A DNA stretch of 38,606 nt from Bacteroidota bacterium (GCA_023229405.1 JALNZH010000002.1:1-38606), one strand, 5' to 3'. Numbered from the stretch's first letter, positions 7,854-31,531 are shown. Numbers and translations are program-made. Notes: generated by a model not told the origin, from the sequence alone.

Positions 7854-8128
7854 TCTGTACCGAAGGAATCCATTTGAAAACCGTCGGTATTTTAGCTGAC
7901 GAACCGGTATTACAATCACCTTTTTAAAACAACATAGTTCAACTTAGCTGGTAGATCAGTTTTAACAAATTCTTTGTTCTACAAAATACAATTGGGTACA
8001 TTGCATGAAGGAAGTAGAAACATTGAGTCACGAACATTGTTCTCAAATTCCGATACTCCCGGACTCTTGATGCGCTATTGTGTTCAGAAGTTTTATTACT
8101 CACAAGCACATGTTATTTCGAATCCATT

Positions 8129-8815: not shown

Positions 8816-8978
8816 TTATACTTTCGTTTCGACCGATCCTCTCCGAAGCACTTCTCTGGAACATCCGCAGGATTTGACAGTATCACGTACAGCTGATATA
8901 CAACAGTTTTCTGAATTTGCGAGGTGAGCAATTACAAAATTGTTGTTTGTCCGACATTTATCGAAGCAAAGTATACTT

Positions 8979-9060
8979 AAGGATTAATTCCTTTTCCATC
9001 CTTTTGGACGATTACAATTGAATGCAATCATCGATATACTCATTCATAATTCAGAAGAGA
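8979..9060 (+). promoter_or_regulatory. Conserved bipartite upstream element, copy 1 (box1 8999-9015, N12, box2 9028-9046)
   Basis: aaggattaattccttttccaTCCTTTTGGACGATTAC-aattgaatgcaa-TCATCGATATACTCATTCAtaattcagaagag. Aligns with copies at 13982, 15114 and 15463. Lies about 118 nt before ATG 9178. Confidence 0.7.
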
Positions 9061-10339: not shown

Positions 10340-10623
10340 CGCAGGGATTCCTTCGGAACAAACAGCAAAGGATTTGCTCAGGATGACCGCTGTTTCTGTG
10401 CCGTGTCGAACCATTTTTCCTTTTTGCGTAACATCAGTAAATCATCCCTTTGGACTATTGTTTTACCGATGTATCTATTACTTATTAGTGTATTATAGAT
10501 AAGCACCACACATTCTTCTGAAAAGCTGCAACTTGCTATAAATAGATGGACATCTGGTGCATGCAATTTTTACCAATAGAATTTGTTATTCATTCAAAAA
10601 AACAAATCCGGAGATAAAAGATC

Positions 10624-12372
10624 ATGAAGAAAAAAGAGGCACCATCTCATCGTAATGTCCTTCCAAAATCTCCTACCAGTATTCAGGGATTGGATGAAAT
10701 TACGGGCGGAGGATTACCAAAAGGGAGACCGACGCTTATTTGTGGCGGCGCGGGTTGTGGAAAGACTCTTTTTGCTATGGAGTTTCTTGTGCGTGGAGCA
10801 ACGCTGTACAATGAGCCGGGTGTCTTTATATCGTTCGAGGAAACAGAGAAAGAACTTACGGCAAATGTTGCTTCGTTAGGATTCGATTTAGACAAACTTG
10901 TAAAGCGGAAAAAAATTTGGTTGGAGCACATTCATATTGAACGAAATGAACTCGAACAAAGCGGTGAATACGATCTGGAGGGATTGTTTATTAGGATACA
11001 TTCTGCAATTGAAAAAATTGATGCAAAACGTGTTGTTCTTGATACGATGGAAATACTTTTTTCAGAATTGCCAAATCCACAGATACTGCGCAAAGAGCTA
11101 CATCGGTTGTTCCAATGGCTGAAAAAAAGAGGAGTAACAACAATTGTTACTGCAGAGCGAGGCGAAGGTGCCTTAACTCGTGAAGGATTGGAAGAGTATG
11201 TTTCTGATTGCGTCATCCTGCTTGATCATCGCGTGATCGATCAATCATCTATTCGTCGACTGCGGATTGTAAAATATCGCGGTTCATCGCATGGTACAAA
11301 CGAGTATCCTTTCCTTATTGATGAAGATGGTTTTTCTGTTCTTCCTGTCACTTCTCTGGGACTGAATCACATCTCATCCCCAGAGAGAATTTCTACCGGT
11401 CTTCCGCGTCTCGACACCATGCTCTCCGGTAAAGGATATTTCCGAGGCAGTACGGTGCTTGTTTCGGGCACTGCCGGTACTGGCAAGACGAGCATTGCCG
11501 CACAATTTGTTGAAGCGGCATGCAAGCGAGGAGAACGCGTTCTCTTTTTCACATTCGAAGAGTCTTCAAATCAGATTGTTCGCAATATGCGCTCCATTGG
11601 AATAGATTTAGAACCATGGGTAAACAAAGGATTGCTTCAGTTTCATGCAACACGCCCCACACTCTATGGTTTAGAAACTCATCTGTCAACGAGCATCAAA
11701 TTGGTTAATAAATTTAGACCAAGCATCGTGATACTCGATCCTATTAATGCATTCGTGCTGGGAGAAAACCAAACGGAAGTCAATATCATGTTGGTGCGCC
11801 TTGTAGATTTTTTAAAGATGAGACGGGTCACTGCGTTTTTCACAAGTCTGACATCCGGCAACGATACTATGGAATCGACCGACGTGTACATCTCATCCTT
11901 GATTGATACATGGCTGCTTGTTCGTGATTTAGAAATTGGTGGCGAACGGAACAGAGGTTTGTATGTGCTTAAATCGCGCGGCATGGCGCACTCCAATCAG
12001 ATCCGCGAGTTTAGACTGACAAATAACGGAATTGAGCTGCTTGACGTGTACGTTGGCTCAGAAGGTGTTTTGACCGGTTCGGCGCGATTATCACAAGAAA
12101 CAAAAGATGAGGCTGAACAATTATTGCGTCAGCAGGAGATCGGATCAAAACAATTTAAATTGGAACGTAAACGCGATGCATTAGCAGCTCAGATTGTTGT
12201 ATTGCGATCTGAATTTGAGGCTGAAGCATCAGATGCACTTAAAGTGATCGGGATTGAAAAAGCAATAAATGAACGCTTCACGCTGGACAAGATAAAAATG
12301 AGTAAGAGCCGAAGAGGTGATGCATCGACAAAAATATCGTACGCTTCAAACGGAAACGGAAGAAAAAAATAA
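10624..12372 (+). CDS. kaiC: KaiC-family double-domain autokinase/ATPase with an extended C-terminal tail
   Basis: Two RecA-like halves with Walker A motifs (CGGAGCGKT; GTAGTGKTS). GLDEITGGGLPKGRPTLI and ..TDVYISSLIDTWLLVRDLEIGGERNRGLYVLKSRGMAHSNQIREF are collinear with cyanobacterial KaiC. 582 aa. Confidence 0.9.
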   Translation: MKKKEAPSHRNVLPKSPTSIQGLDEITGGGLPKGRPTLICGGAGCGKTLFAMEFLVRGATLYNEPGVFISFEETEKELTANVASLGFDLDKLVKRKKIWLEHIHIERNELEQSGEYDLEGLFIRIHSAIEKIDAKRVVLDTMEILFSELPNPQILRKELHRLFQWLKKRGVTTIVTAERGEGALTREGLEEYVSDCVILLDHRVIDQSSIRRLRIVKYRGSSHGTNEYPFLIDEDGFSVLPVTSLGLNHISSPERISTGLPRLDTMLSGKGYFRGSTVLVSGTAGTGKTSIAAQFVEAACKRGERVLFFTFEESSNQIVRNMRSIGIDLEPWVNKGLLQFHATRPTLYGLETHLSTSIKLVNKFRPSIVILDPINAFVLGENQTEVNIMLVRLVDFLKMRRVTAFFTSLTSGNDTMESTDVYISSLIDTWLLVRDLEIGGERNRGLYVLKSRGMAHSNQIREFRLTNNGIELLDVYVGSEGVLTGSARLSQETKDEAEQLLRQQEIGSKQFKLERKRDALAAQIVVLRSEFEAEASDALKVIGIEKAINERFTLDKIKMSKSRRGDASTKISYASNGNGRKK

Positions 12373-13024: not shown

Positions 13025-13750
13025 ATGTTCCAAAGGAAAGCAATCGGTATTAACTTCATTCCGTATGCTACCACGAAACAAATTGGACAAAAAATAGTGT
13101 CTATGCCTAAAATTCGAATACTCCTTGTAGAAGATAACCGCATTTTGCGTGATGGCATTACTGCGATGATCAACGGTCAGAAAGATGTCATGGTTGCGGC
13201 TGTTTGCGACGGCAGGGATGACACCATATCGAAAGCACGCACATCGAAACCGCAAGTGGTGTTGATTGATCTCGGTTTGGAGAGTCAGAACAGTTTGGAC
13301 GTAGTGCAGTTGTTGAAGAAGGAGTTTCCGGATATCAAAATTATTGGGATGGGTCTTAATCCATCACAATCGGATATTATGGAATTCGTGCAAGCAGGGG
13401 CGGAGGGTTTTATACTTAAAAACGCAACGCTTGAAGAGGTGATCAATACAATTCGAGCAGTAGCCTGCGGAGAAAAAATACTCCCTTCCTTAATGACCGG
13501 ATCACTCTTTTTTCAAGTGGCAGAACATGCACTCCTGAAAGGAAAAAGAAACCTTAATAGCGCCGTCCGTATGACAGAGCGTGAAAAAGAAGTGATTGCA
13601 TTGATTGTTGAGGGAATGAGTAACAAGCAAATTGGTGACAATCTCAGTATCGCAACGTTCACCGTTAAAAGTCATGTACATAATATTCTGGAAAAGTTAG
13701 CTTTACAAAGCCGTCTTCAAATTGCAATGCACGTCAGTAATGGAAAATAA
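13025..13750 (+). CDS. NarL/FixJ (LuxR-HTH) family response regulator, orphan, paralogue 2
   Basis: ATG 13025; alternative starts GTG 13094 and ATG 13103 (MPKIRILLVEDN). Residues KIVSMPKIR align with KITVPKIR of paralogue 1, favouring an upstream start. Same receiver and HTH motifs as 8129..8815. Confidence 0.85.
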   Translation: MFQRKAIGINFIPYATTKQIGQKIVSMPKIRILLVEDNRILRDGITAMINGQKDVMVAAVCDGRDDTISKARTSKPQVVLIDLGLESQNSLDVVQLLKKEFPDIKIIGMGLNPSQSDIMEFVQAGAEGFILKNATLEEVINTIRAVACGEKILPSLMTGSLFFQVAEHALLKGKRNLNSAVRMTEREKEVIALIVEGMSNKQIGDNLSIATFTVKSHVHNILEKLALQSRLQIAMHVSNGK

Positions 13751-13847: not shown

Positions 13848-13981
13848 CTGTTGTATACTGGGAATTCCGTCGAACTTCGATCACTCACTCTCTGGCTATC
13901 AAAGCAGCAATCGCCGTCAACCCGATGGATGGCATAGAGTAACTCTCAACTACACCATTACTTGGTATTATTTACAACACT

Positions 13982-14063
13982 TAAGAGTTAGCTCTTTTAT
14001 TGTCCTTTTGGGCGATTACTTCTGGAGGCAGTCATGAGTATACTCATTCACGATTCAGGAGAG
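13982..14063 (+). promoter_or_regulatory. Conserved bipartite upstream element, copy 2 (box1 14003-14019, N12, box2 14032-14050)
   Basis: taagagttagctcttttattgTCCTTTTGGGCGATTAC-ttctggaggcag-TCATGAGTATACTCATTCAcgattcaggagagg. Lies between terminator 13809 and ATG 14169. Confidence 0.7.
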
Positions 14064-14168
14064 GATTTCATTTCTTCATTGATCAAAGAGAACTTCTGCT
14101 GATTCTGCAACGTACGCCTTATTAAAGGGATTACATTTTTAAGTGTTATGATTCATTTAAGGAGATTT

Positions 14169-15026
14169 ATGAAAAACGCAAATATTCAAATCCACACACA
14201 ATCAGCGATACGACCGGCTATCATTATGTCTATTTCGCTTGCAATGTTTCTTTTCGCAGCGTGCGAATCGAATTCACCATCCACCCAACAAGACATCAGT
14301 GGTCCGTCTTCAACAGCAACAACAATTAACAAAAAAGTTGCTTCTTTTGACGCTGTATCGAACCTTGCTGTTCTAGCGCCGGTAAATCTTGGTTTAGCCG
14401 ACGGATTTGCAATTCTGTCGTACGCTGGAATCACCAATACCGGTATCACAAGTATTACTGGAAATCTTGGAGCGAGTCCTATAACCGGTGCTTCACTGAC
14501 TGGATTTGAGACAGTAGCTTTAGTTGGAACAACGTATACCGTTGATGCTAGCGGTCCTGTAGGTTACGTAACAGATGCTACGATGTTAACTCAGGCAATG
14601 CTTGATGTAACAGTTGCATATAATGATGCCGCAGGACGAACGGAAAATCCAATTGGTATAGAAGGAAATCTTGGCGGACAGACACTTCTTCCGGGACTTT
14701 ATAAATCTACCGGTGCGCTTGAAATCTCATCCGGCGATCTTACGCTCGATGCTCAAGGTGATGTGAATGCTGTTTGGATTTTTCAAGTAGCGTCCAGTTT
14801 CAATATGACATCAGGTCGCCAAGTGTTCTTAACCGGCGGTGCGAAAGCTTCCAACATTTTTTGGCAGGTCGGTAGTTCTGCAACATTTGGAACAACTGCA
14901 GTAATGAAGGGAACCATTTTGGCGTATGCAACAGTAACACTTGCTACAGGTGCATCATTGGAAGGCAGAGCATTAGCTCGAACCGCCAATGTTACATTAG
15001 ATGCTAATACCATTGTGAAGCCGTAA
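14169..15026 (+). CDS. Lipoprotein with a DUF3494 / type-1 ice-binding-protein-like beta-helix domain (subtype A)
   Basis: ORF 14148..15026; ATG 14169 follows aaggag. Lipobox LFAAC. Family motifs [88 protein letters not shown]. Confidence 0.85.
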   Translation: MKNANIQIHTQSAIRPAIIMSISLAMFLFAACESNSPSTQQDISGPSSTATTINKKVASFDAVSNLAVLAPVNLGLADGFAILSYAGITNTGITSITGNLGASPITGASLTGFETVALVGTTYTVDASGPVGYVTDATMLTQAMLDVTVAYNDAAGRTENPIGIEGNLGGQTLLPGLYKSTGALEISSGDLTLDAQGDVNAVWIFQVASSFNMTSGRQVFLTGGAKASNIFWQVGSSATFGTTAVMKGTILAYATVTLATGASLEGRALARTANVTLDANTIVKP

Positions 15027-15066
15027 ACTAATTGGATTGATTTCTCAATTATTGGCTGAACATCGG

Positions 15067-15097
15067 AACCCCGCTCTCACAAGGGCGGGGTTTTTTA
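15067..15097 (+). terminator. Rho-independent terminator
   Basis: GC-rich stem ccccgc(t)c/gggcgggg followed by T6. Confidence 0.75.
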
Positions 15098-15113
15098 TTG
15101 ATCGCTAACTACA

Positions 15114-15190
15114 AAGGATTAACTCTTTTTCCATCCCTTCGGGCGATTACACTCGAACACATTCATCTGTATACTCATTCACAGTGTAAT
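15114..15190 (+). promoter_or_regulatory. Conserved bipartite upstream element, copy 3 (box1 15134-15150, N12, box2 15163-15181)
   Basis: aaggattaactctttttccaTCCCTTCGGGCGATTAC-actcgaacacat-TCATCTGTATACTCATTCAcag. Ends about 50 nt before sORF ATG 15239. Confidence 0.7.
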
Positions 15191-15238
15191 TGAATTTATA
15201 TAATAAAAACGATACACAAAAATTAAAAGGAGCGAATC

Positions 15239-15394
15239 ATGGAAATTATTATTGGTCTTATCGCTTATGCCGTAGTTTTATATTTCCTTGTATCCTTTGG
15301 ACGATTTTCCAAAGAATGTGATAATTCTATGGGGGAATACTTTGGTAAACGGAATGTAAGGAAAAGTAAGAAAGCAATCGCACAACTTTCATAG
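15239..15394 (+). CDS. Small membrane protein, 51 aa (below the ORF-track cutoff)
   Basis: Strong RBS aaggag 6 nt before the ATG. MEIIIGLIAYAVVLYFLVSFGRFSKECDNSMGEYFGKRNVRKSKKAIAQLS has one TM helix and a basic tail. Sits directly behind element copy 3. Confidence 0.5.
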   Translation: MEIIIGLIAYAVVLYFLVSFGRFSKECDNSMGEYFGKRNVRKSKKAIAQLS

Positions 15395-15462
15395 AGATGT
15401 ACTAGAATTGATTGTTTGGTTGTTTCGATTTTCTGTTCCAGTGAGCGCTACAAATCATACTA

Positions 15463-15544
15463 AAGGATTAACTCTTTTTCCGTCCTTTTGGGCGATTACT
15501 TTTCAACATAGTCATCGGTATACTCTTCCACAATTCAGGGGAGA
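15463..15544 (+). promoter_or_regulatory. Conserved bipartite upstream element, copy 4 (box1 15483-15499, N12, box2 15512-15530)
   Basis: aaggattaactctttttccgTCCTTTTGGGCGATTAC-ttttcaacatag-TCATCGGTATACTCTTCCAcaattcaggggagatg. About 190 nt before ATG 15735. Confidence 0.7.
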
Positions 15545-15734
15545 TGTACTCTCTTAGTACACCGACGGATATTTTCACTGAAAAGAAGCCAAATGACAAA
15601 TTCAAATAATGAATACGAACAACGAGAACTTGACATCAAGGAAGAGTTTCGAAAAAGAATCAACTAAAAAAGTAAGTATGAAATCGTCTTCGTGACACAA
15701 CCCGTAATTAATTAATAAATACAGAAAGAATGTT

Positions 15735-16574
15735 ATGAAAAACCTATCCACAAATTCAACACCTATCGTAGTAAGCCGATGGATGCAATTCGTCGGTATC
15801 TCACGAACAGTGGGATTAACAGTAATATTACCGGCATTTCTTTTTATTGCTGGCTGCAAAAAAGATGATGCAATTGCTTCACCTCCATCCTCAATAACCA
15901 TTCCACTTCAAACTACCGTACAGGCGGTAGTTAATCTTCGTTCCGATGCAGGTTTTGCAATTCTTGGAGGCTCATTGGTTTCCAATGTTCCAACATCCGC
16001 CATTACAGGGGATATTGGATTGAGTCCGGCAGCACGCTCATTCATCACCGGTTTTGGTTTAACAGAGGTAACGGGGACAATTTATGCCGCCGACGATATT
16101 TCTCCTGCAGGTGTGTCTGCGATGTTAACAGCGGCAAAGGGCGATTTAACCACAGCATATAATGATGCTGCAGGACGTACATCAACAGATATAGTGCTCC
16201 TTGCCGGAAATCTTGGCGGACTGACACTGACGCCAGGTCTCTATAAGTCGAGCGGTTCGCTTGAAATTTCATCAGGCGATCTTACGTTCGATGCCAAAGG
16301 AAATGCACATGCTGTTTTTATCATTCAGATTGCATCCACACTAAACACAACATCGGGTCGAAAGATTATTTTAAGCGGCGGTGCAAAAGCATCGAACATT
16401 TTTTGGCAGGTTGGTACTTCAGCAACTCTTGGAACAACCTCTGTATTCAAGGGAACCATCATGGCTGATCAATCGATCTCGCTGAATACCGGTGCAATAG
16501 TTGAAGGAAGATTGTTAGCGCGCATTGCTGCAGTAACGTTAGCCGGCAATACTGTTGTAAAACCGACACCATAA
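15735..16574 (+). CDS. Lipoprotein with a DUF3494 / ice-binding-like domain (chimeric subtype B-A-B)
   Basis: Lipobox FLFIAGC. Motifs [110 protein letters not shown]. Confidence 0.85.
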
Positions 16575-16611
16575 AATAGCTGAACAAAGCGATAATTTAA
16601 TCACTGAACAT

Positions 16612-16643
16612 TGAAATCCCGCTTTCCGGAGCGGGAGATTTCA
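16612..16643. repeat. REP-like hairpin of the aatcccgc family
   Basis: tgaaatcccgc/gcggg(ag)atttca. An A-run rather than a T-run follows. Confidence 0.6.
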
Positions 16644-16716
16644 AAAAATAAATTTCGCTCAGTTTTACTAACCATCTGTCTGAAGTTAGTGGTTACATCA
16701 AAAGAAAGAAAAGATC

Positions 16717-16845
16717 ATGAGAACACTCGACGTTATCGCTCTGGTCCTGTTCGTCATGTGGATGTTAGGTGTCATTCACATTCTTTTAGGAATTGCAATT
16801 GTAGCATTCTTCTTCAGTGTAACTCGCAGACGAAAGGCTTTTTAA
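16717..16845 (+). CDS. Small hydrophobic membrane protein, 42 aa (possibly lmo0937/DUF5670-like)
   Basis: MRTLDVIALVLFVMWMLGVIHILLGIAIVAFFFSVTRRRKAF has two hydrophobic stretches and an RRRK tail. Only a purine-rich weak RBS. The overlapping 86-aa track ORF (16611..16871) runs through a REP hairpin. Confidence 0.4.
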   Translation: MRTLDVIALVLFVMWMLGVIHILLGIAIVAFFFSVTRRRKAF

Positions 16846-16877
16846 CCAAAGGAACGGAGCCTAAGACGTAATCTTTT

Positions 16878-17117
16878 ATGGACGCAATAATTCATGACGA
16901 AGAAATTCAAAATGCAGATCAAAAAACATTGAATGACAAAATCTTTTTCTCGAACAATATTAGAATGAAAATCACAATGAAAACTGCAAAATTATTTCTC
17001 TATTACGGTTACACAATGGCAACGATATGGATGTTGTATTCTCATTTTCTGAAAGAGCAACGACAGTGCAAAATGCCGGCTCACATAGAAGAAGATGAAT
17101 TCATAAACTGGCAGTAG
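16878..17117 (+). CDS. Hypothetical small protein with one hydrophobic segment
   Basis: 79-aa ORF with a weak RBS and the hydrophobic stretch AKLFLYYGYTMATIWMLYSHF. No recognisable family. Confidence 0.25.
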   Translation: MDAIIHDEEIQNADQKTLNDKIFFSNNIRMKITMKTAKLFLYYGYTMATIWMLYSHFLKEQRQCKMPAHIEEDEFINWQ

Positions 17118-17244
17118 AAAAATTTGAACAAATAATTGAACAATAATTTTAGCTCGTAGTAGAACAGGTAGACCGTGCTCTATAAGAGCGGGACGATTCG
17201 AACAAAAAACATTTAGTCATTATTATTTACACCATGGAGAAGTT

Positions 17245-18330
17245 ATGAATACCGATACAAAACACACAACAAATAATTTAGCACGATTGACACGCTTCTT
17301 TGGAGTGATCCTGCCAGTTGCGTTGATCTTCTCAGTCACAGCAATGTCTCAAACATTGACTGCGGTAAATTTAGGATCATCCGCCAATTACGTTATTCTG
17401 GCTGGTTCATTAGTTTCAAACATTCCGGCTTCTGCGGTTACAGGGAATATCGGTTTGAGTCCCGCAGCGGGCAGCAGCATAACCGGATTTGGTTTAACTG
17501 AAGTTACCGGGACCATCTACACGGTTGATGCTACCGGTCCTGTCGGTTCGACAATGGCACCGACAATACTGACGGCGGCAAAGGGTGATTTAACCATTGG
17601 GTACAACGATGCCGCAGGACGCACACCAATACCAACGGGTACATATTTAAATCCGGGATCAGGAAATATTGGCGGATTAACACTTGTTCCGGGTCTGTAT
17701 AAATTTACAAGCGATGCTTCAATAACGGGATCTGATGTTACTCTCACAGGCACCGCAACAGATGTCTGGATATTCCAGATTGCTGCTGGTCTGAACGTCG
17801 GCACTGGCATTAAAGTTATTCTTGCCGGTGGTGCAAGAGCAGCAAACATTTTTTGGCAGGTCGGTAGCTCGGCGACCCTGGGTACAACCTCTGTATTCAA
17901 AGGAACGATCATGGCTGGTCAATCAATCTCGTTGGGTACTGGAGCATCTTTGGAAGGTAGGGCGTTAGCAAGTAATGCCGCAGTTACATTAGAATCTAGT
18001 GTTGTTACCAGACCGTCGACAACGACCGCTGTAGCAAATGGAATCGTAACGCCACAACAATATGAACTCTTCCAAAATTATCCGAACCCATTCAACCCAT
18101 CCACACAGATTCATTATAATCTTGAGAAGGCTGTTCAGGTTTCTCTCAAGGTCTACAATCTTCTTGGTGATGAAGTTGCAACACTGGTGAAGGGTCCTCA
18201 AGAAGCAGGTAGTTATGCTGTGCCGTTCAATAGCAATATGGGAACACGTAATCTTTCAAGCGGTGTCTACTTTTACCGTTTGGAAGCCGGGCCATTTCTT
18301 TCAACAAAAAAATTTACACTTGTAAAGTAG
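17245..18330 (+). CDS. T9SS-sorted DUF3494 / ice-binding-like protein (subtype B)
   Basis: RBS ggaga and a signal peptide. Motifs [90 protein letters not shown]9SS tail LFQNYPNPFNPSTQIHYNL..GVYFYRLEAG..KKFTLVK. Confidence 0.88.
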   Translation: MNTDTKHTTNNLARLTRFFGVILPVALIFSVTAMSQTLTAVNLGSSANYVILAGSLVSNIPASAVTGNIGLSPAAGSSITGFGLTEVTGTIYTVDATGPVGSTMAPTILTAAKGDLTIGYNDAAGRTPIPTGTYLNPGSGNIGGLTLVPGLYKFTSDASITGSDVTLTGTATDVWIFQIAAGLNVGTGIKVILAGGARAANIFWQVGSSATLGTTSVFKGTIMAGQSISLGTGASLEGRALASNAAVTLESSVVTRPSTTTAVANGIVTPQQYELFQNYPNPFNPSTQIHYNLEKAVQVSLKVYNLLGDEVATLVKGPQEAGSYAVPFNSNMGTRNLSSGVYFYRLEAGPFLSTKKFTLVK

Positions 18331-18417
18331 TTCTTATTTATAAATCCACTTTCAAGAGTGGGGACAATTTTCCTAAACAATATCTTATTCATTTTCAATA
18401 ACTAAAGAGAAAGTCTT

Positions 18418-20763
18418 ATGAACATTAACACAACAAATAAATTACGCCGATGGTCTCGTTTTGTCGGAGCAATGGTGTCAGCAGCTTTGATGATGTCTGT
18501 CACCGCCAAGTCTCAATCATTGATGCCAGTAAATCTGGGGTCGACCTCCAATTTTTCAATTTTGGCTGGTTCATTAATCTCAAACATTCCAACGTCTGCT
18601 GTTATTGGTGATATCGGTTTAAGCCCTGCCGCTGGCAGTGGTGTAATTGGATTTGGACAAACTGAAGTGACAGGAATAATATATACGGTCGATGCTACTG
18701 GTCCTGTCGGTTCAGTAATTGATGCTACGAAGCTAACTACAGCGCAGGGTGATTTAACGATTGCATACAACGATGCTGCAGGGCGTACGCCAATTCCGAC
18801 GGGTACATTTTTGAATCCGGGATCGGGAAATATTGGAGGATTAACACTTGCTCCAGGATTGTATAAATTCACAAGTGACGCATCGATTTCAGGTTCTGAT
18901 GTTACGCTCACAGGCAGCGCAACAGATGTCTGGATATTCCAGATTGCAGCTGGTCTTAATGTAGGCACTGGTATTAAAGTTATTCTTGCCGGTGGTGCAA
19001 AAGCATCGAACATTTTTTGGCAGGTTGGTACATCAGTCACACTGGGAACAACTTCGGTCTTCAAGGGAACCATTTTGGCAGATCAATCTATCTCGCTAAA
19101 TACCGGTGCAACAGTTGAAGGAAGATTATTAGCCCGCATTGCTGCGGTTACATTGGCCTCTAATGCTGTTACCAATCCGACCATCATCACTTTGCAAGCT
19201 CCATTGTTAACATCACCAGCTGACGAAGCAACACATCAGTCAACATCTGTTGAGTTGAAATGGTTTGCTTCAACTGGAGACAGCGTGTATCATTTACAAA
19301 TTGATACGAACAACGTTTTTGGTACAACGGTGTATAACGATTCAACTCTTACAGGAACCCTGCATAAAACAGCAGGTTTAATGAATGGAACAAAATATTT
19401 CTGGCGCGTAAGTGTAAAAGATAGTGCGAAGTATGGTGGCGGAACAAGCGCGTATTCGACCATTCGAAGTTTTACAACATTGAATCTCATATCTATTCCG
19501 CAACCACCAGTGTTAGAATTGCCGGCTGACCTGGCAACGAATCAATCAACAACAATTGAATTGACGTGGTTTGCTGCCGTTGGAGACAGCGTGTATCATT
19601 TACAAATTGATACAAGCAAATTTTTTAGTTCAACGGTGTATAACGACTCAACTCTCAAAGGTAGCTTGCATAAAATTACAGGCTTAAAGAATGCAACAAA
19701 ATATTACTGGCGTGTAAGTGTAAAAGACAGTGCAACGAATGGTTTCGGAACGAGTGCTTATTCAACAGTACGAAGTTTTACAACATGGAACGTTACACCA
19801 ACAACACCTCTTTTGCCGGTCACTCTTGGTATGACTGATCGATTTGCGATTTTATCGTATGCAGGAATAACCAATACAGGTCCTACAAGTATTATCGGAG
19901 ATGTTGGAGTGAGTCCTCTTGCTGCTTCGTATATGACCGGATTTGGTACACCCAATATCGTCGGAACGATCTATGGAGTTGACGCAACAGGTCCTGAAGG
20001 CTCGGTAGTTTTTCCTTCGATGTTAACACAGGCCATGGGTGATTTAACGACAGCATTTAACGATGCGGCAGGACGAACAGTAGATCCGATCGGTGTGTCC
20101 GGAAATCTTGGTGGACTTACTCTCTATTCTGGTTTGTATAAATCCACTGGGTCACTTGAAATATCATCAGGCGATCTTACGCTCGATGCTCAAGATGACA
20201 CAGCTGCTGTTTGGGTTTTTCAAATAGCTTCCAGTTTCGATATGACATCAGGTCGCCAAGTTTTCCTTACGGGCGGTGCAAAAGCTTCCAATATTTTTTG
20301 GCAAATGGGAAGTGCGGCAACGTTTGGAACGACGACTATAATGAAGGGAACCATTATGGCGTATACAACAATTACGTTTGCTACAGGCGCATCGTTGGAA
20401 GGCAGAGCATTAGCGCGAACGGCTGGTATTACATTGCAAAGCAATACCATCGGCAAAGTTGCGGGACCGACTTCTGTTCGGTCAGAAAATGTACCCCAAG
20501 AATTTACACTTTTACAGAATTACCCGAATCCGTTCAATCCAACAACAAATATTGAATTCACCGTTCCATTCAATGGACGAGCAACATTGAAAGTATTCAA
20601 TGCGATCGGACAGGAAGTTGCGACATTGTTCAACGGTGAAGCGGAAGCAGGAAAATACAATACAGTGCAATTCAACGCTTCAGGATTGGCAACTGGATTG
20701 TATTTTTCACGATTGGAGTTTGGCGGTGTAGTGCAGTTGAAAAAAATGATGCTGGTAAAATAA
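18418..20763 (+). CDS. T9SS-sorted protein: DUF3494(B) - 2x FN3-like repeats - DUF3494(A) - sorting tail
   Basis: Domain 1 about 18520-19176. Two 102-aa-period repeats at 19201-19479 and 19513-19785 (..W(F)A..GDSVYHLQIDT..Y(F/Y)WRVSVKD..). Domain 2 about 19813-20457. Tail LLQNYPNPFNPTTNIEF..GLYFSRLEFG..KKMMLVK. Confidence 0.88.
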   Translation: MNINTTNKLRRWSRFVGAMVSAALMMSVTAKSQSLMPVNLGSTSNFSILAGSLISNIPTSAVIGDIGLSPAAGSGVIGFGQTEVTGIIYTVDATGPVGSVIDATKLTTAQGDLTIAYNDAAGRTPIPTGTFLNPGSGNIGGLTLAPGLYKFTSDASISGSDVTLTGSATDVWIFQIAAGLNVGTGIKVILAGGAKASNIFWQVGTSVTLGTTSVFKGTILADQSISLNTGATVEGRLLARIAAVTLASNAVTNPTIITLQAPLLTSPADEATHQSTSVELKWFASTGDSVYHLQIDTNNVFGTTVYNDSTLTGTLHKTAGLMNGTKYFWRVSVKDSAKYGGGTSAYSTIRSFTTLNLISIPQPPVLELPADLATNQSTTIELTWFAAVGDSVYHLQIDTSKFFSSTVYNDSTLKGSLHKITGLKNATKYYWRVSVKDSATNGFGTSAYSTVRSFTTWNVTPTTPLLPVTLGMTDRFAILSYAGITNTGPTSIIGDVGVSPLAASYMTGFGTPNIVGTIYGVDATGPEGSVVFPSMLTQAMGDLTTAFNDAAGRTVDPIGVSGNLGGLTLYSGLYKSTGSLEISSGDLTLDAQDDTAAVWVFQIASSFDMTSGRQVFLTGGAKASNIFWQMGSAATFGTTTIMKGTIMAYTTITFATGASLEGRALARTAGITLQSNTIGKVAGPTSVRSENVPQEFTLLQNYPNPFNPTTNIEFTVPFNGRATLKVFNAIGQEVATLFNGEAEAGKYNTVQFNASGLATGLYFSRLEFGGVVQLKKMMLVK

Positions 20764-20789
20764 AACACTATTAGGTAATAAAATAAATG

Positions 20790-20825
20790 AAGCGTTTCGG
20801 TTTTTTTACCGGAACGCTTTTTTTA
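20790..20825 (+). terminator. Rho-independent terminator
   Basis: 11-bp stem aagcgtttcgg/ccggaacgctt (one G-U pair), 8-nt loop, then T7+. Confidence 0.75.
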
Positions 20826-20870
20826 TCAATGGGTTTTACTTTGCGGACACAAAATATTCTAGGAGAAATC

Positions 20871-21626
20871 ATGAATCATATTAATTGCTCGTTTCGATTG
20901 TCTGCTGTACTTATTGCATTACTAACATTGACGATCCTGCCGGCGAGGTCACAAGTGAATATGAAACTTGGGGGCGGTATCGGTATAGTCAGTCCGACTT
21001 CAGATTTCAGCGGTTCTACCATTGACTACTATAACGGTTCAAACTATGGACTCGTCAGTGGTCTTACCATTCATGGAAAGACGAAGATCGGATTATCAGG
21101 ATTGAATATTGTCGGTGAAATTGATTATGCGTCATTACAAAATACCGGAAATTCTGGACCAGGACGGGGATTGGTGAATATATCACAAAATATCATATCG
21201 CTGAAAGTCGGACCTGAGTTTCATCTCACCATTCCCATAATACCAATTACTCCATACATCGGTGCAAACATAGCAATGAATAGATTCAGCGGAGAGACAA
21301 CGTTTCGCGGAGTATCGAAAGTTCCGAGTGCAACATATAGTGTAACAGACGCAACACGATTTGGTGTTGGATTTTCTGCCGGTTCGGAAGTGAGTATTGG
21401 TCATTTGTTATCGTTCGATTTTAATTTCTCATACAACTTCATGAATGTCGCCGGTAAGGAATGGAATAACGTTAATCCGGAAACAAACCAACGCATCGAT
21501 TCCTATCTTTCGTTGAATGATGGTATCGATCCTCAGTACACCACAGGAGATGAAAATCATTTTATTGTCAGCACGCGTAATATTAATTCAGTTCTGGTTA
21601 CGGTAAGCATCTTGTTCGGTGTATAG
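20871..21626 (+). CDS. Outer-membrane beta-barrel protein (porin-like, unknown function)
   Basis: ORF 20787..21626, but 20787-20825 is the terminator. ATG 20871 follows aggag. Signal LIALLTLTILPARSQ. Alternating-hydrophobicity strands rich in G/S/N/Y/F. Confidence 0.6.
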   Translation: MNHINCSFRLSAVLIALLTLTILPARSQVNMKLGGGIGIVSPTSDFSGSTIDYYNGSNYGLVSGLTIHGKTKIGLSGLNIVGEIDYASLQNTGNSGPGRGLVNISQNIISLKVGPEFHLTIPIIPITPYIGANIAMNRFSGETTFRGVSKVPSATYSVTDATRFGVGFSAGSEVSIGHLLSFDFNFSYNFMNVAGKEWNNVNPETNQRIDSYLSLNDGIDPQYTTGDENHFIVSTRNINSVLVTVSILFGV

Positions 21627-21707: not shown

Positions 21708-22202
21708 ATGAACCATTATCGTTTTGCAATTATTGCCTGTTGTGTGTTTCTCGCATTTCAGGAATCCAAAGCTCAAGTGCACCGCTTTGGACTTGGTGTG
21801 ATCATCGGTGAACCTGCGGGAATCAGCGCAAAGTTGTGGACATCAAACCACACCGCATTTAATTTCGGTGCTGGTTGGTCGGTAGGAGGAGATCGTATGG
21901 GGAGGTATGATTACTATTATAATGGAACAAACCGAGTTCACGTACACATGGACTACTTGTGGCATTCGTTTGATGTCATCCGTTCATCCGAACTATTTCC
22001 GCTATTCTATGGCATTGGTTGTCGTATAAACAATGGTGCCGGGTATGACGCTTCGGTTGCAGTTCGAGGTGTGTTCGGCTTTGCATGGCTGCCGCATAAA
22101 GTGCCAATAGATATATTTATAGAGCTCGTTCCGATGCTCCAACTTTCACCTGCAAGCAGTTTTGGTATTGATGCCGGAGTTGGCGCACGATATTTTTTTT
22201 GA
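21708..22202 (+). CDS. Small outer-membrane beta-barrel protein
   Basis: Signal MNHYRFAIIACCVFLAFQESKAQ. Short amphipathic strands. Ends GVGARYFF (C-terminal aromatic beta-signal). Confidence 0.6.
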   Translation: MNHYRFAIIACCVFLAFQESKAQVHRFGLGVIIGEPAGISAKLWTSNHTAFNFGAGWSVGGDRMGRYDYYYNGTNRVHVHMDYLWHSFDVIRSSELFPLFYGIGCRINNGAGYDASVAVRGVFGFAWLPHKVPIDIFIELVPMLQLSPASSFGIDAGVGARYFF

Positions 22203-22281: not shown

Positions 22282-24429
22282 ATGTCAACAGACGTTTTCG
22301 AACGGAGGTTTTTCAATATGAAAAATATCAAAAAAACGAAACTTGAACTGAGTGGAGAACTACAATCTGCAAATCAGAAAGCCGCTGAAATCGAAACACA
22401 ATTGAATGGACATGGAGAGACACGTTCCCAAACGATGAATGACGTGCGTGATTCCGAGATCCGCTACCGACGACTCTTTGAAACTTCTCAGAATGGTATT
22501 TTAATACTCGATGCTGAATCCGGTGCAATCACTGATGCGAACCCTTTCCTCAGGGAAATGCTGGGCTATGCATCAGAGGAATTGATCGGAAAACGATTGT
22601 GGGAGATTGGTGCATTCGTTGATGTCAAAGACAGTAAAGCTGCGTTCGAAGAATTGCAGCTCAAAGAATATATTCGGTACGAGGATTTGCCGTTAAAGAC
22701 CAAAGAGGGACAAAGTAGAGAGGTGGAGTTTGTAAGCAATGTCTATCTTGTTAATGGCAAAAAAGTAATTCAATGCAATATCCGGGACATTTCCGAACGC
22801 AGAGAGATTGAAAAAGGGTTGGAAAAAACCCGCAAAGAGCTTGAGGTAACAAAAATATCCGAAGATGCAGCCCGCGAATACGCCGAGAGCATCATCAACA
22901 CCGTACGTGAATCCTTAATAGCTTTGGATCAAGATTTAAGAGTTGTCACAGCCAGTCGTTCCTTCTATGAAATCTTTAAAGTAAAACCTGAAGAGACTGT
23001 GGGTCAGCTCATTTATGATCTGGGGAATAAACAGTGGGATATTCCCAAGCTGCGGGAACTGCTGGAAACAATCCTTCCAAAAAAAGCAACCTTCGACAAC
23101 TATGAGGTTAAACACGATTTTTCTACCATTGGCAGACGCATTATGCTTTTAAATGCACGACAGATTCAAAGAGTGTTGGGTAAAGAACGGATCATCCTGC
23201 TGGCTATTGAAGATATCACTGAGCGCAGAGAAATTGAAAATGGACTTGAAAAAACTCGTAAAGAACTTGAAGTAACAAAAATATCCGAAGATGCAGCCCG
23301 CGAATACGCCGAGAGCATCATCAACACCGTACGTGAATCCTTAATAGCTTTGGATCAAGATTTAAGAGTTGTCACAGCCAGTCGTTCCTTCTATGACGTT
23401 TTTAAGGTAAAGCCTGAAGAGACTGTGGGTCAGCTAATTTATGATTTGGGAAATAAACAGTGGAATATCCCCAAACTGCGAGAACTGCTGGAAACAATCC
23501 TTCCACAAAAAGCAACCTTCGATAACTATGAGGTTGAACACGATTTTGCTACCATTGGCAGGCGCATTATGCTTTTAAATGCACGACAGATTCAAAGAGT
23601 GTTGGGTAAAAAAAGGATCATCTTGCTGGCTATTGAAGATATTACCGAGCGCAAAGAAATTGAAAATGGTCTGGAAAAAGCCCATGAAGATTTAAAAGAA
23701 TTAGCCGCAGAGTTAAACCGCACCGCTAAAGTAAAATCTGAATTCTTGTCTAACATGTCGCATGAGCTTAGGACTCCGCTCAACTCCATCAACGGTTTCT
23801 CCGAAGTTTTATTCGATGAGACGTTCGGACCGCTTAATGAAAAACAGAAAAAATATGTTAATAATGTTTTAACAAGTGGTAAGCATCTTCTCTTATTGAT
23901 AAATCAGATTCTTGATATGGCAAAAGTTGAAGCGGGAAAGATGAAGCTAGTTTTATCCACATTACCCATGAAAACCTTGTTAAATGAAATTTCATTACTG
24001 TTGGCAGATATGGTAAGCAAAAAGAAACTGCACATGGACCTTGAAATTTCCGAAGATTTGCCGAATATCGAAGCAGATGAACTTAAGGTAAAAGAGATTT
24101 TGTACAACTTACTTTCAAACGCTGTGAAATTCACGCGTGAGGGTGGAAGAATTGGAATGTGGGCAAAGAAAGCCGATTCCGAAATAGAAATAGTGGTCTG
24201 GGATACAGGGGTCGGTATCGCACCTGAAAACATGGAAAAAATATTTGAAGGTTTTTTCCGTGTTGATACTCCCTATTCTCGTGTAACTGAGGGGACAGGA
24301 CTCGGTTTGCCCCTTTCTAAAAAACTGGTTGAGCTGCATGGCGGAAAACTTTCTGTGGAATCAGCAGGACTCTATAAAGGTATCTCGGTCCGGTTTACGT
24401 TGCCGATTGTATCCAGAAAGGTGGTGTGA
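22282..24429 (+). CDS. Cytoplasmic PAS-PAS-PAS sensor histidine kinase
   Basis: No TM segments. PAS 1 (RYRRLFETSQNGILILD..). Two duplicated PAS units (REYAESIINTVRESLIALDQDLRVVTASRSFY..). HisKA FLSNMSHELRTPLNSINGFSE. HATPase WDTGVGIAPENMEKIFEGFFRV..GTGLGLPLSKKLVELHGG. Confidence 0.9.
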   Translation: MSTDVFERRFFNMKNIKKTKLELSGELQSANQKAAEIETQLNGHGETRSQTMNDVRDSEIRYRRLFETSQNGILILDAESGAITDANPFLREMLGYASEELIGKRLWEIGAFVDVKDSKAAFEELQLKEYIRYEDLPLKTKEGQSREVEFVSNVYLVNGKKVIQCNIRDISERREIEKGLEKTRKELEVTKISEDAAREYAESIINTVRESLIALDQDLRVVTASRSFYEIFKVKPEETVGQLIYDLGNKQWDIPKLRELLETILPKKATFDNYEVKHDFSTIGRRIMLLNARQIQRVLGKERIILLAIEDITERREIENGLEKTRKELEVTKISEDAAREYAESIINTVRESLIALDQDLRVVTASRSFYDVFKVKPEETVGQLIYDLGNKQWNIPKLRELLETILPQKATFDNYEVEHDFATIGRRIMLLNARQIQRVLGKKRIILLAIEDITERKEIENGLEKAHEDLKELAAELNRTAKVKSEFLSNMSHELRTPLNSINGFSEVLFDETFGPLNEKQKKYVNNVLTSGKHLLLLINQILDMAKVEAGKMKLVLSTLPMKTLLNEISLLLADMVSKKKLHMDLEISEDLPNIEADELKVKEILYNLLSNAVKFTREGGRIGMWAKKADSEIEIVVWDTGVGIAPENMEKIFEGFFRVDTPYSRVTEGTGLGLPLSKKLVELHGGKLSVESAGLYKGISVRFTLPIVSRKVV
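22795..23646 (+). repeat. Tandem duplication, 2 x 426 bp (142 codons), inside the kinase gene
   Basis: Unit boundaries ga(a/g)cgcagaga(g/a)attgaaaa at 22795, 23221 and 23647. A 125-nt identical run at 22846-22970 = 23272-23396. Confidence 0.95.
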
Positions 24430-24430
24430 G

Positions 24431-25843
24431 ATGAGGAAGAAAGCATTGGTTGTCGACGACAATGGAAACAATTTGATGTTGGAAAAAGATCTTTTAGAGG
24501 TCGCTGGCTTCGAAGTATTTGGAGCTGAAAATGCTTCCAGTGGAATTACAATCGCCAAGAGAGAAAAACCTGATATCATCGTTATGGATATGCGGCTTCC
24601 GGATATGCGTGGTTCTGAGGCTGCCAAAGCATTACGTCTAGACAAAGAGACACGTAATATTCCCATTGTTTTTGTGACCGCTTCCGTAATGGCAGAAGGC
24701 AAAGAAGAAATAAACTCAATACCGAACTGTGGATTTATTGGTAAGCCGATAAACTCACGCACGTTTGCAAAAGAAATTAGTCAATTTATTACTAAGGAAA
24801 TAAAAGACAAACCTGTAATCTTAGTTGTTGATGACAAAATCCAAAACATTGAACTTCTCGAAGTATATCTTGTTCCGCAGGGTTATGAAATTATCAAGGC
24901 AACAAGCGGTGAAAAAGCGCTGCTGAAACTTTCTGTTCACCCAATCGATCTGATACTGATGGATGTAGTGATGCCCGCGATGGATGGTTTTGAAGTCACC
25001 CGTACACTTAAGCAAGATGATAAAACTCGATTGATACCGATAATTTTAGTCACAGCATTGCATGAAACAGAAGACCGGGTTAAAGGAATTGAAGCTGGGT
25101 GTGATGATTTTATTTCAAAGCCTGTTGATAAGATGGAACTTTTAGCCAAGGTAGATTCACTGCTTAGAACTAAATCTCTGCATGACAAAGTAAGCGAAGC
25201 CCGCGAATATGCTGAAAGTATTATCAATACAGTACGTGAATCGTTAATCATTTTAGACAAAGATTTAAGAGTTGTCACGGTCAGTCGTTCCTTCTATGAC
25301 ATCTTTAGGGTAAAACCTGAAGAGACCGTGGGGCAGCATATTTATGACTTGGGTAATAAACAGTGGGATATCCCCAAGCTGCGGGAACTGTTGGAAACAA
25401 TTCTTCCCCAAAAAACTACCTTTGACGACTTCGAAGTTGAACACGATTTTACCATCATTGGCAGACGTACAATGCTTTTAAATGCCCGACAGACTCAACG
25501 AGCGTTGGGCAAGGAACTGATCATCTTGTTGGCTATTGAAGATATTACAGAACGAAAGCGGACAGAAGAGGCACTCGCGGAAGGAGCAAAAGAACGTGAG
25601 AAATTAATTAAAGAGCTTCAATACGCTTTAGACAACATCAAAACCCTACAAGGACTTATTCCTATATGTGCCAATTGTAAAAAGATAAGAGACGATAAAG
25701 GGTTCTGGAACCAAGTAGAAGGATACATTATGGCACATAGCGATGCAACGTTCACGCATGGTGTGTGCCCAGAGTGTGCAAAGAAATTGTACGGAGATCA
25801 TTATGACCAAACGATTAAAAACCTACAAAAGAAAAACATATAA
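24431..25843 (+). CDS. REC-REC-PAS protein with a C-terminal Cys4 zinc-ribbon-like motif
   Basis: ATG 24431 lies directly after the upstream TGA (one nt between). Receiver 1 KALVVDDN..DIIVMDMRLPDM. Receiver 2 VILVVDDK..DLILMDVVMPAMDG. Third copy of the REYAESIINTVRESL PAS unit. Tail ICANCKKIRDDKGFWNQVEGYIMAHSDATFTHGVCPECAKKLYG. Confidence 0.88.
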   Translation: MRKKALVVDDNGNNLMLEKDLLEVAGFEVFGAENASSGITIAKREKPDIIVMDMRLPDMRGSEAAKALRLDKETRNIPIVFVTASVMAEGKEEINSIPNCGFIGKPINSRTFAKEISQFITKEIKDKPVILVVDDKIQNIELLEVYLVPQGYEIIKATSGEKALLKLSVHPIDLILMDVVMPAMDGFEVTRTLKQDDKTRLIPIILVTALHETEDRVKGIEAGCDDFISKPVDKMELLAKVDSLLRTKSLHDKVSEAREYAESIINTVRESLIILDKDLRVVTVSRSFYDIFRVKPEETVGQHIYDLGNKQWDIPKLRELLETILPQKTTFDDFEVEHDFTIIGRRTMLLNARQTQRALGKELIILLAIEDITERKRTEEALAEGAKEREKLIKELQYALDNIKTLQGLIPICANCKKIRDDKGFWNQVEGYIMAHSDATFTHGVCPECAKKLYGDHYDQTIKNLQKKNI

Positions 25844-25930
25844 CCGAAAGGAAATGATGTAACCTTACAGAGCGGTTTACAATAGTATCAGAAGGGAACT
25901 CCCGATACCACAATACAAAAGAGGCGGAGA

Positions 25931-31330: not shown

Positions 31331-31531
31331 TTAAGAGCCAGTCCGGTTGTATATGACATTCTCTGCAATCCTTAAATTCACCTTGTAAAGGATGGTCTTT
31401 GAAGTGGGAATCGAGCTTTTTCCATTTGCTAGAGATTCAATAATTGCATGAAGCAAATCTATATTGTAACCACGCTTCAGGCATCGTTTATAGTCGGCAT
31501 TAAATTTTGATACTCGCCGTATAGAGACCAT
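31331..31531 (-). CDS. YafQ/RelE-family toxin remnant (66 aa, core and C-terminus missing)
   Basis: The N-terminus F.ADYKRCLKRGYNIDLLHAIIESLANGK and the end ILYKV..VIYNRTGS align by eye with the YafQ termini. About 26 central residues are absent. The start overlaps the antitoxin stop (TAATG). Confidence 0.55.
   Translation of the reverse strand: MVSIRRVSKFNADYKRCLKRGYNIDLLHAIIESLANGKSSIPTSKTILYKVNLRIAENVIYNRTGS

Follow-up and report, generated by a model that had tools for sequence, protein, structure and literature searches.

Five DUF3494 ice-binding-type domains with two predicted surface anchors behind a putative stress promoter in an uncultured Ignavibacteria-like bacterium

Does a tandem run of genes for ice-binding-type domains serve its host against ice or on some other surface, and what switches such genes on? 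The locus that raises this question lies in a 38,606-nucleotide (nt) stretch of DNA (GCA_023229405.1, JALNZH010000002.1:1-38606), hereafter the window (the 38.6 kb to which all coordinates refer), whose source is an uncultured Ignavibacteria-like bacterium from a non-marine metagenome. Four consecutive genes, numbered 1 to 4 (Table 1), encode five DUF3494 domains, and copies of an element of about 85 nt, as delimited by a repeat finder, stand before some of them. On balance, we favor the view that the array coats the cell surface with beta-solenoid domains of the DUF3494 family (IBP-1 fold) and that this coat is made on demand.

All four open reading frames (ORFs) are present where an earlier note, written from the sequence by itself, had placed them, and the occurrence of five PF11999 domains within 6.6 kb far exceeds chance. 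The GC content across the array (0.37 to 0.44 per 1 kb) falls inside the range of the rest of the window. Gene 1 has an alternative ATG at position 14148. The start at 14169 follows a strong Shine-Dalgarno sequence (AAGGAG) at a distance of 4 nt, and the gene caller also chose it in the identical contig of ENA assembly ERZ27247322.

The hidden Markov model search with Pfam PF11999 (Ice_binding; DUF3494, IBP-1 fold; gathering cutoff of 28.7 bits) that the earlier note had suggested placed all four proteins far above the cutoff: the three single-domain proteins scored 199 to 227 bits apiece, and the gene 4 product, with its two domains, scored 402 bits. Every gene matched, with E-values of 9.9e-66 (gene 1), 2.1e-67 (gene 2), 7.6e-59 (gene 3) and 6.9e-121 (gene 4, in two separate stretches), which bears out the proposed count of five domains. 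The likeness to Flavobacterium and Typhula ice-binding proteins (IBPs) that the note had drawn was also recovered, as both FfIBP and TisAFP are among the PDB sequence matches. The sequence blocks put forward as family hallmarks are indeed present, but an alignment of the five domains revealed small deviations in single domains, namely, GYNDAAGR in gene 3; AFNDAAGR, SGLYK, FWQMGSAAT and GITL in the C-terminal domain of gene 4; and FAILSY in place of the FAIL(A/S)G block in gene 1.

The same alignment sorts the domains into three subtypes. In subtype A, gene 1 pairs with the C-terminal domain of gene 4 (nt 19849-20451; 71% identity); in subtype B, gene 3 (residues 51-255, nt 17395-18009) pairs with the N-terminal one (nt 18520-19173; 80% identity). 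Gene 2 shares 56 to 65% identity with the other four domains and represents a conserved third subtype, C, because orthologues that are 82 to 93% identical to it occur in many metagenome-assembled genomes (MAGs). Half-by-half identities had hinted that gene 2 might be a recent mosaic of genes 1, 3 and 4; we rejected this idea in view of those orthologues.

Structural comparisons point the same way. PDB sequence searches with genes 1 and 3 (E ≤ 0.001) returned only studied IBPs; gene 1 matched EfcIBP best (6EIO, E = 1.7e-55), gene 3 matched FfIBP best (4NU2 and its mutants, E = 1e-53), and further matches included ColAFP, LeIBP, TisAFP, IBPv, SfIBP_1 and the Cryosericum IBPs of 2025. The AlphaFold2 (AF2) model of gene 1 has a per-residue confidence (pLDDT) above 90 over the domain and below 50 for residues 1-65, and it displays the three-faced beta-solenoid (approximately residues 75-285) with a long alpha-helix alongside (residues 138-155, among the stacked strands) that defines the IBP-1 fold. 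In Foldseek (target-normalized template modeling [TM] scores), this model aligned with 6EIO at a TM score of 0.89 (51% identity) and with 4NU2 at 0.92 (47% identity), and all 31 matches at E < 0.001 were IBPs, with TM scores from 0.84 to 0.92. The full-length AF2 model of gene 4 shows the same solenoid layout twice at lower confidence and was used for domain layout only; MAFFT had put all single-domain homologues on the C-terminal domain, so that the N-terminal domain was modeled, with low confidence, from three sequences. Given the PDB matches, the TM scores and the all-IBP Foldseek matches, membership of PF11999 is secure. The family is large, in that gene 4 has over 2,500 database matches at E ≤ 1e-10, among which are many two-domain type IX secretion system (T9SS) proteins, and the homologues of gene 1 include IBPs of the Antarctic alga Chlamydomonas ICE-MDV (E of about 1e-69).

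The four proteins appear to leave the cell by two routes, as lipoproteins (genes 1 and 2) and as T9SS cargo (genes 3 and 4), which agrees with the earlier assignment of the first pair to lipid anchors and of the second pair to T9SS tails. Inspection for the pattern of a lipobox, an uncharged h-region and a basic n-region identified the lipoboxes LFAAC in gene 1 (...SLAMFLFAAC, Cys32) and FIAGC in gene 2 (Cys41). In each case, the lipobox cysteine is the only cysteine of the protein, and the products of genes 3 and 4 contain none, so the window domains cannot carry a capping disulfide of the FfIBP type. Gene 1 continues into a Ser/Thr/Pro-rich tether of approximately 40 residues, predicted to be disordered, that runs up to about residue 65. 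An acidic or Lys-rich, K-(D/E)2-like motif immediately behind the +1 cysteine is the lipoprotein export signal of Capnocytophaga and Bacteroides and may not hold in Ignavibacteria. The residues after the cysteine are C-KKDD in gene 2, which resembles the Bacteroidetes surface-lipoprotein export signal, C-EKDD and C-SDDE in its orthologues, and only C-ESNS in gene 1.

Genes 3 and 4 start with hydrophobic Sec-type N-termini that end, as read from the sequence, in AMS/Q and AKS/Q, respectively. Their C-terminal domains exceed the curated cutoffs of both T9SS models: gene 3 (residues 279-357, nt 18079-18315) scored 32.5 bits with PF18962 (cutoff of 27) and 36.3 bits with TIGR04183 (cutoff of 23), and gene 4 (nt 20521-20751; beta-sandwich modeled at residues 709-779) scored 35.9 and 31.7 bits against the same cutoffs. 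No genes for the T9SS machinery (PorU/V, SprA and others) were found within the window. The organism does use T9SS tails elsewhere, since a 531-aa protein encoded at 6115-7710, upstream of a paralogous response regulator, also carries a type-A sorting domain at its C-terminus; Pfam, NCBIfam and PDB sequence searches revealed no other recognizable domain in it. The two DUF3494 domains of gene 4 are separated by a linker of 200 residues (nt 19207-19785) that consists of two FN3-like beta-sandwiches (residues 264-354 and 365-456 of the model) encoded by an internal 291-nt repeat with 80% identity (repeat family D4). The linker scored 24.5 bits with Pfam fn3, just under the cutoff of 25, and matched a titin FN3 domain at E = 6.8e-7. 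The tether of gene 1 and the FN3 spacers of gene 4 are compatible with the layout of an ice adhesin of the SfIBP_1 or MpIBP type, i.e., a surface anchor, extender domains and a distal ice-binding domain. Separately, the N-termini of genes 2, 3 and 4 (15735-15800, 17245-17310 and 18418-18480) share a motif ahead of the hydrophobic core, a T/N-rich segment followed by R-W-x-R-F-x-G, which also occurs in many homologues (e.g., at loci L004, L007 and L042) and is no canonical twin-arginine signal.

How the genes are controlled is suggested by the upstream element. The copy before gene 1 contains a TTACTT hexamer at −35, a 17-nt spacer and TATACT at −10 (14039-14044), and a conserved site at about −37 to −70; further copies precede a small ORF of 51 aa and gene 2, and a fourth lies outside the array (Table 1). 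A generic sigma-70 scan listed only the copy before the 51-aa ORF. The repeat finder, alignments and a profile search of the window revealed no element before gene 3 or gene 4, and the only further match in the window was weak and partial (10442-10466, upstream of kaiC, E = 0.01). In an alignment of 40 copies, which requires no gaps except one single-base gap in one copy, the conserved blocks are AAAGGATTAAC, TTTCATCCTTTYGG and CGATT. The final TT of CGATT begins a TTACnn hexamer, and TATACT follows exactly 17 nt after that hexamer, giving the overall motif AAAGGATTAAC-N6-TTTCATCCTTTYGGNCGATTAC-N17-TATACT, and the upstream site is partly palindromic (AAAGGAnTAAnTCCTTT...TCATCCTTTYGG). In our reading, the element is a sigma-70-type promoter whose −35 hexamer is weak and which has its conserved upstream site between about −37 and −70.

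The positions of the elements and terminators suggest how the array may be transcribed. Gene 1 would form a unit of its own, with its own element and a strong terminator, and the 51-aa ORF and gene 2 would each start from one element. Gene 2, the 42-aa ORF downstream of it, gene 3 and gene 4 may form one operon, because no canonical terminator follows gene 2 and because, at a related locus (L076), an element stands directly before the homologue of the 42-aa ORF, which is followed by orthologues of genes 3 and 4. We considered a hairpin at 16618-16648 as a terminator of gene 2 and rejected it, as it is followed by a run of A rather than T and is absent from the list of the terminator scan.

To see the element beyond the window, we used 76 IBP loci. 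One of them (L001) is the same contig in its ENA copy; the other 75 had been collected with gene 4, in species-representative genomes, or with the relative that is 90% identical to it. The element profile found 74 further copies in 32 of these 76 loci, all in the same orientation as the genes. In addition, a degenerate 27-nt pattern was searched in a 596-Gb genome collection, in which we estimate that about 0.5 matches would be expected by chance; it occurred in at least 119 stretches, and nearly all of those listed belong to MAGs labeled Ignavibacteria, Bacteroidota or Kapaibacterium. The motif occurs many times per genome in Ignavibacteria-type MAGs (seen in the window and in L002, L004, L016, L017, L045, L067, L076 and L077-L195).

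A Pfam scan of 100 first genes downstream of the listed pattern matches gave CsbD-like proteins in 25 cases, followed by PAS sensors (5), PRC-barrel proteins and DUF4398 lipoproteins (4 each), and KaiC, DnaJ, OmpA and DUF3494 proteins (3 each). Genes for small membrane proteins also stand behind the motif, and the translations of single downstream ORFs resemble, by inspection, Hsp20 and GroES. Since the same motif mostly precedes CsbD, PRC-barrel, DUF4398, DnaJ and KaiC genes, the element is not dedicated to the array. Thus, the earlier note was right that upstream elements exist, but they are not the "dedicated" ones it had described; they look like a lineage-wide promoter found mostly before general-stress genes, with direct copies in the array only at genes 1 and 2. 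We infer that the element is the promoter of a lineage-wide regulon of the general-stress type, into which genes 1 and 2 at least, and possibly all four, would be wired. The motif therefore offers a practical handle on a previously undescribed stress regulon of the Ignavibacteria. A 267-aa lipoprotein (9178-9981; lipobox VGC, then KNSDD) encoded behind the fourth element is a member of the same putative regulon and gave no Pfam, NCBIfam or PDB sequence match.

What, then, would the coat do? In our judgment, somewhat more speaks for than against a stress-induced surface display of ice-binding domains that inhibits recrystallization or mediates adhesion to ice. The exported domains would present a flat face with a Thr/Ser ladder that binds ice, and, once bound, they could inhibit recrystallization where the cell meets ice, preserve a liquid film around the cell or fasten it to ice as the habitat freezes and thaws. 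At the residues aligned with the three T-A/G-x-T/N motifs of FfIBP plus one further coil, the ladder is T,T,T,T in both subtype A domains (T89, T239, T257 and T276 in gene 1) and S,T,S,T in the three domains of subtypes B and C; the corresponding residues are T,T,N,T in FfIBP and T,S,T,T in EfcIBP. The window domains are about 50% identical to these two reference proteins, both of which have measured thermal hysteresis (0.53 °C for EfcIBP and 2.5 °C for FfIBP at 50 micromolar; PMC10992025). Many relatives come from seasonally frozen places, including the Stordalen fen, SPRUCE peat, Chersky permafrost, boreal lakes and glacier-fed streams, and also from Danish soils.

Several points weigh against this reading. 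Ice binding by these domains is predicted from homology, and the strict FfIBP tetrapeptide T-A/G-x-T/N is found at none of the three sites in any of the five domains. The NCBIfam equivalog for these proteins (NF045625, IBP_CFB; cutoff of 400 bits) gave 215.8, 176.6 and 209.5 bits for genes 1 to 3, and gene 4 reached 402.4 bits only by summing its two domains. Domains with 45 to 73% identity are also encoded by MAGs recovered from a Danish wastewater plant, the Rifle aquifer, Crystal Geyser, deep groundwater at Horonobe, a deep mine and a warm sulfidic spring (Zodletone), i.e., sites at which ice is an unlikely selective agent; the habitat evidence, which comes from the sites of relatives, is mixed. 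Moreover, the genes that share the element are general-stress rather than cold-specific genes, the transcript starts and the operon structure of genes 2 to 4 are predictions from the sequence, and the element is tied to its candidate regulator (described below) by gene adjacency only.

Some of these observations would suit a different role, in which the domains are general surface adhesins or binders of ordered water, directed at minerals, polysaccharide or other periodic surfaces, or help to form a biofilm or a protective coating, within a general stress or sessility response. Close relatives do live in habitats that never freeze, the proteins are built like adhesins, with a distal solenoid held by a tether or FN3 spacers on a lipid or T9SS anchor, and the co-regulated genes again belong to general stress rather than to cold. 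DUF3494 proteins are known worldwide, including tropical and hot-spring habitats, and have been suggested to bind other repeating substrates such as minerals (Raymond et al., PMC7783341; PMC12337378). In addition, the structurally similar CAA domain (PF20597) is adhesive in temperate diatoms and is also found in bacterial surface proteins anchored by LPXTG, PEP-CTERM or T9SS (bioRxiv 10.1101/2023.03.06.531300). On the other side, the solved structures matched by genes 1 and 3 are without exception studied IBPs, two of them at 47 to 51% identity; the Thr/Ser ladder is kept in the window domains, whereas CAA domains lack a Thr-rich face; and many relatives come from MAGs of seasonally frozen sites, as listed above. 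We regard the adhesin role as a serious but clearly less probable alternative to ice binding.

DUF3494 is the commonest microbial ice-binding fold, and for its role in soils, peat, aquifers and engineered systems, as well as for its regulation, this locus is a compact test bed, with three subtypes, two display modes and an explicit promoter/operator next to a candidate regulator. If the domains bind ice, the array would show envelope protection by a non-polar lineage of anaerobe type in freeze-thaw habitats; if they do not, it would be a clean case of a non-ice function of PF11999.

Just upstream of the array lies a cassette of kaiC, kaiB and a response regulator gene, which may bear on the timing of expression. 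The KaiC homologue contains two KaiC-domain stretches, scored 729 bits with NCBIfam NF006799 (equivalog cutoff of 408) and matched Rhodobacter KaiC (8DBA) best in the PDB (E = 4.7e-203, residues 14-564, including the C-terminal extension). The regulator has a paralogue at 8078-8815, ahead of the fourth element copy. The order KaiC-KaiB-regulator-element-IBP recurs in L004, L016, L045, L050 and L076, and kaiC itself is preceded by the element in some loci. Among the loci found through IBPs, the element stood about 200 nt after the regulator orthologue in all 10 cases examined. Among the 119 listed loci found through the element, 27 contained a regulator orthologue, which was co-oriented with the element in 26 of them and ended 0 to 320 nt before it (counted from the stop codon) in about 15; in four listed loci of this set, the element lay 200 to 350 nt before kaiC. 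On the basis of this adjacency, the response regulator is the best candidate to bind the upstream site, and kaiC, given its own element in some loci, is a probable target of the same promoter.

These arrangements allow a mechanism to be sketched. The NarL-type regulator would bind the partly palindromic site and activate the element promoters, probably acting downstream of the adjacent KaiC-KaiB timer and of PAS histidine kinases (encoded at 22282-28714), and the same promoter would drive the general-stress regulon of the lineage (CsbD, PRC-barrel, DUF4398, DnaJ and KaiC). A bolder version, which we offer as speculation and consider rather unlikely, holds that a KaiC-KaiB hourglass timer and the NarL-type regulator control this lineage-wide regulon, small membrane proteins and kaiC included, through the one promoter/operator, with the surface IBPs plugged into it, so that the anti-ice coat would be timed or anticipatory and not only raised after cold shock. 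If this were true, the coat might be deployed, e.g., before night or seasonal frost. The cassette and the motif together are also a handle on what non-cyanobacterial KaiBC systems control. As a side observation from a different phylum, genes for homologues of KaiC (60% identity) and KaiB stand no more than 5 kb from two DUF3494 genes in a Verrucomicrobiota MAG from SPRUCE peat (L044), which could reflect either a transfer of the whole neighborhood or an independent functional link.

The least probable alternative concerns the element itself, which would have to be a structured cis-regulatory RNA (a 5′ leader or thermosensor) or a promoter for an alternative sigma factor (extracytoplasmic function [ECF] or sigma-54); we consider either improbable. 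The closest copies do stay conserved for about 10 to 20 nt past TATACT and contain an inverted repeat, AAAGGA...TCCTTT, whose center changes from TTAA to CTAG in some copies, but Rfam found no match in the window, and RNAalifold predicted not a single base pair from 40 copies, which makes a structured RNA unlikely and led us to reject it. Moreover, what is conserved widely sits 5′ of the −10 box, with weaker matches covering only model positions of about 5 to 45, so most of the conserved sequence would stay untranscribed. The block spacing fits −35/17 nt/−10, and, by inspection, the conserved columns fit neither GG-N10-GC (sigma-54) nor AAC-N16-CGT (ECF), on which grounds these promoter types were set aside as well; an ECF-type sigma factor gene behind the element in L067 and L175, as expected for an autoregulated sigma factor, leaves a specialized sigma factor some residual probability. 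A sigma-70-type promoter thus remains our reading of the element.

The array is an ordinary member of a known family, and such arrays are common in related MAGs and have been reported in earlier studies. Two or more DUF3494 domains were present in 49 of the 76 IBP loci, some of which hold seven to ten within about 20 kb. The earlier suggestion of a strong, regulated investment therefore holds for the regulation but not for the number of domains, as five are not exceptional next to the ten of related loci and to published tandem and multi-domain IBPs (PMC9957290). At the two nearest loci, L076 and L002 (one gene 4 relative is 92% and the other 90% identical), the gene order is kept and gene 2 is absent. 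At its site, the element is followed by a gene for a small membrane protein in L076 and by a CsbD-like gene in L002. This replacement of gene 2 shows that the cargo behind the promoter turns over between close strains.

Table 1. Array genes, element copies, terminators and neighboring genes, with the evidence for each
Feature	Coordinates	Strand	Evidence or remarks
Fourth element copy	8973..9060	+	nhmmer E 1e-17; just 3′ of regulator 8078-8815, before lipoprotein 9178-9981
KaiC homologue, 582 aa, Rhodobacter type with C-terminal coiled-coil extension	10624..12372	+	Pfam KaiC 1.5e-106
KaiB homologue, 125 aa	12388..12765	+	Pfam KaiB 1.4e-24; NCBIfam KaiB models below equivalog cutoffs
NarL/LuxR-type response regulator	13025..13750	+	Pfam Response_reg and GerE; best NCBIfam model NarL, below cutoff
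Element copy before gene 1	13976..14065	+	Repeat family D9, alignments, nhmmer E 6e-15
Gene 1, predicted lipoprotein, one subtype A DUF3494 domain, 285 aa	14169..15026	+	PF11999 9.9e-66, AF2, Foldseek
Intrinsic terminator 3′ of gene 1	15065..15094	+	13-bp stem with 7 GC pairs, then T-run
Element copy before 51-aa ORF	15107..15195	+	−10 TATACT at 15170-15175
Small ORF, 51 aa, predicted single-pass membrane protein	15239..15394	+	Strong Shine-Dalgarno AAAGGAG; called gene in L001
Element copy before gene 2	15456..15545	+	−10 TATACT at 15519-15524
Gene 2, predicted lipoprotein, one subtype C DUF3494 domain, 279 aa	15735..16574	+	PF11999 2.1e-67
Small hydrophobic ORF, 42 aa	16717..16845	+	Weak DUF5670-like Pfam match, E 0.005
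Gene 3, Sec signal, subtype B DUF3494 domain, type-A T9SS C-terminal domain	17245..18330	+	PF11999 7.6e-59
Gene 4, 781 aa, Sec signal, two DUF3494 domains, two FN3-like domains, T9SS C-terminal domain	18418..20763	+	PF11999 6.9e-121
Strong intrinsic terminator 3′ of gene 4	20789..20820	+	13-bp stem, then T-run
Outer-membrane beta-barrel protein, 251 aa from corrected (probable) start	20871..21626	+	PF13505 8.6e-10
164-aa protein with signal peptide	21708..22202	+	Homologues in 15/76 IBP loci and 10/119 listed element loci

The small ORFs and the genes downstream of the array recur at related loci. Homologues of the 51-aa ORF stand behind the element in L076, L017 and L010, and the 42-aa ORF has homologues in L076 and L002. 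In its longest reading (20787-21626), the beta-barrel ORF that follows gene 4 would include the gene 4 terminator within its first 30 codons. Because the start at 20787 overlaps this hairpin and the L076 orthologue is 251 aa long, its true start is probably 20871. Homologues of the beta-barrel protein were present in 8 of the 76 IBP loci, making it a conserved neighbor of IBP arrays, and the 164-aa protein is the neighbor most often conserved; the element precedes its gene in L076, and family searches assigned it to no confident family.

Two further observations concern genes outside the array. A histidine kinase gene (22282-24429; PAS-HisKA-HATPase) contains a 426-nt tandem duplication at 22793-23683 (2.1 copies, 91% identical) that doubles the PAS module together with the preceding coiled segment, and the 6 kb after this gene encode more PAS, receiver and kinase proteins. 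The minus strand (31331-31788) carries a gene for a RelB/DinJ-type antitoxin (PF04221, 51 bits) and, behind it, an ORF of 66 aa for a YafQ-like toxin. This ORF covers only positions 3-39 of the 88-position profile, which suggests a toxin that has been shortened or has decayed.

Among characterized proteins, none comes closer in sequence and structure to gene 1 and the gene 4 C-terminal domain than EfcIBP (6EIO), from the bacterial consort of the Antarctic ciliate Euplotes focardii. It resembles them in its Thr ladder at the aligned positions and in being secreted by means of a signal peptide, but it lacks the capping-head insert of approximately 11 residues that is present in all five window domains, and it is a single soluble domain without a lipobox, T9SS tail or FN3 spacers. 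For gene 3 and the gene 4 N-terminal domain, the top match is FfIBP (4NU2), from Flavobacterium frigoris PS1 and the basis of NF045625; it has the capping-head region and comes from the same FCB superphylum, but its capping region contains a disulfide, and its T-A/G-x-T/N motifs are not strictly kept in the window. The CAA (PF20597) domains of Bacillus anthracis BA_0871 and the diatom Trailins share the helix-braced, three-faced beta-solenoid, and their bacterial members are likewise surface proteins with alternative anchors, T9SS included. Unlike the window proteins, which are clear PF11999 members, they have no detectable sequence similarity to PF11999 and no Thr-rich face.

For display at the surface, the closest parallel is SfIBP_1 (6BG8) of Shewanella frigidimarina, a proposed ice adhesin that is also surface anchored and in which beta-sandwich spacers hold out the DUF3494 domain. 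It is a significant match in both sequence and structure at an identity of only 31%, and it differs in its tandem Ig-like domains, its mode of anchoring and its single ice-binding domain. IBPv (5UYT) of the Flavobacteriaceae bacterium 3519-10 has two DUF3494 domains in one protein, as does gene 4, and Arctic MAGs, mostly of Bacteroidota, encode double- and triple-domain IBPs as well as tandem IBP genes on single contigs (Winder et al. 2023, PMC9957290). In contrast to these, gene 4 joins domains of different subtypes, with two FN3 modules set between them and a T9SS domain at the C-terminus, and the window comes from an Ignavibacteria-like, non-marine source, with a putative promoter wiring that is undescribed for IBPv and the Arctic cases.

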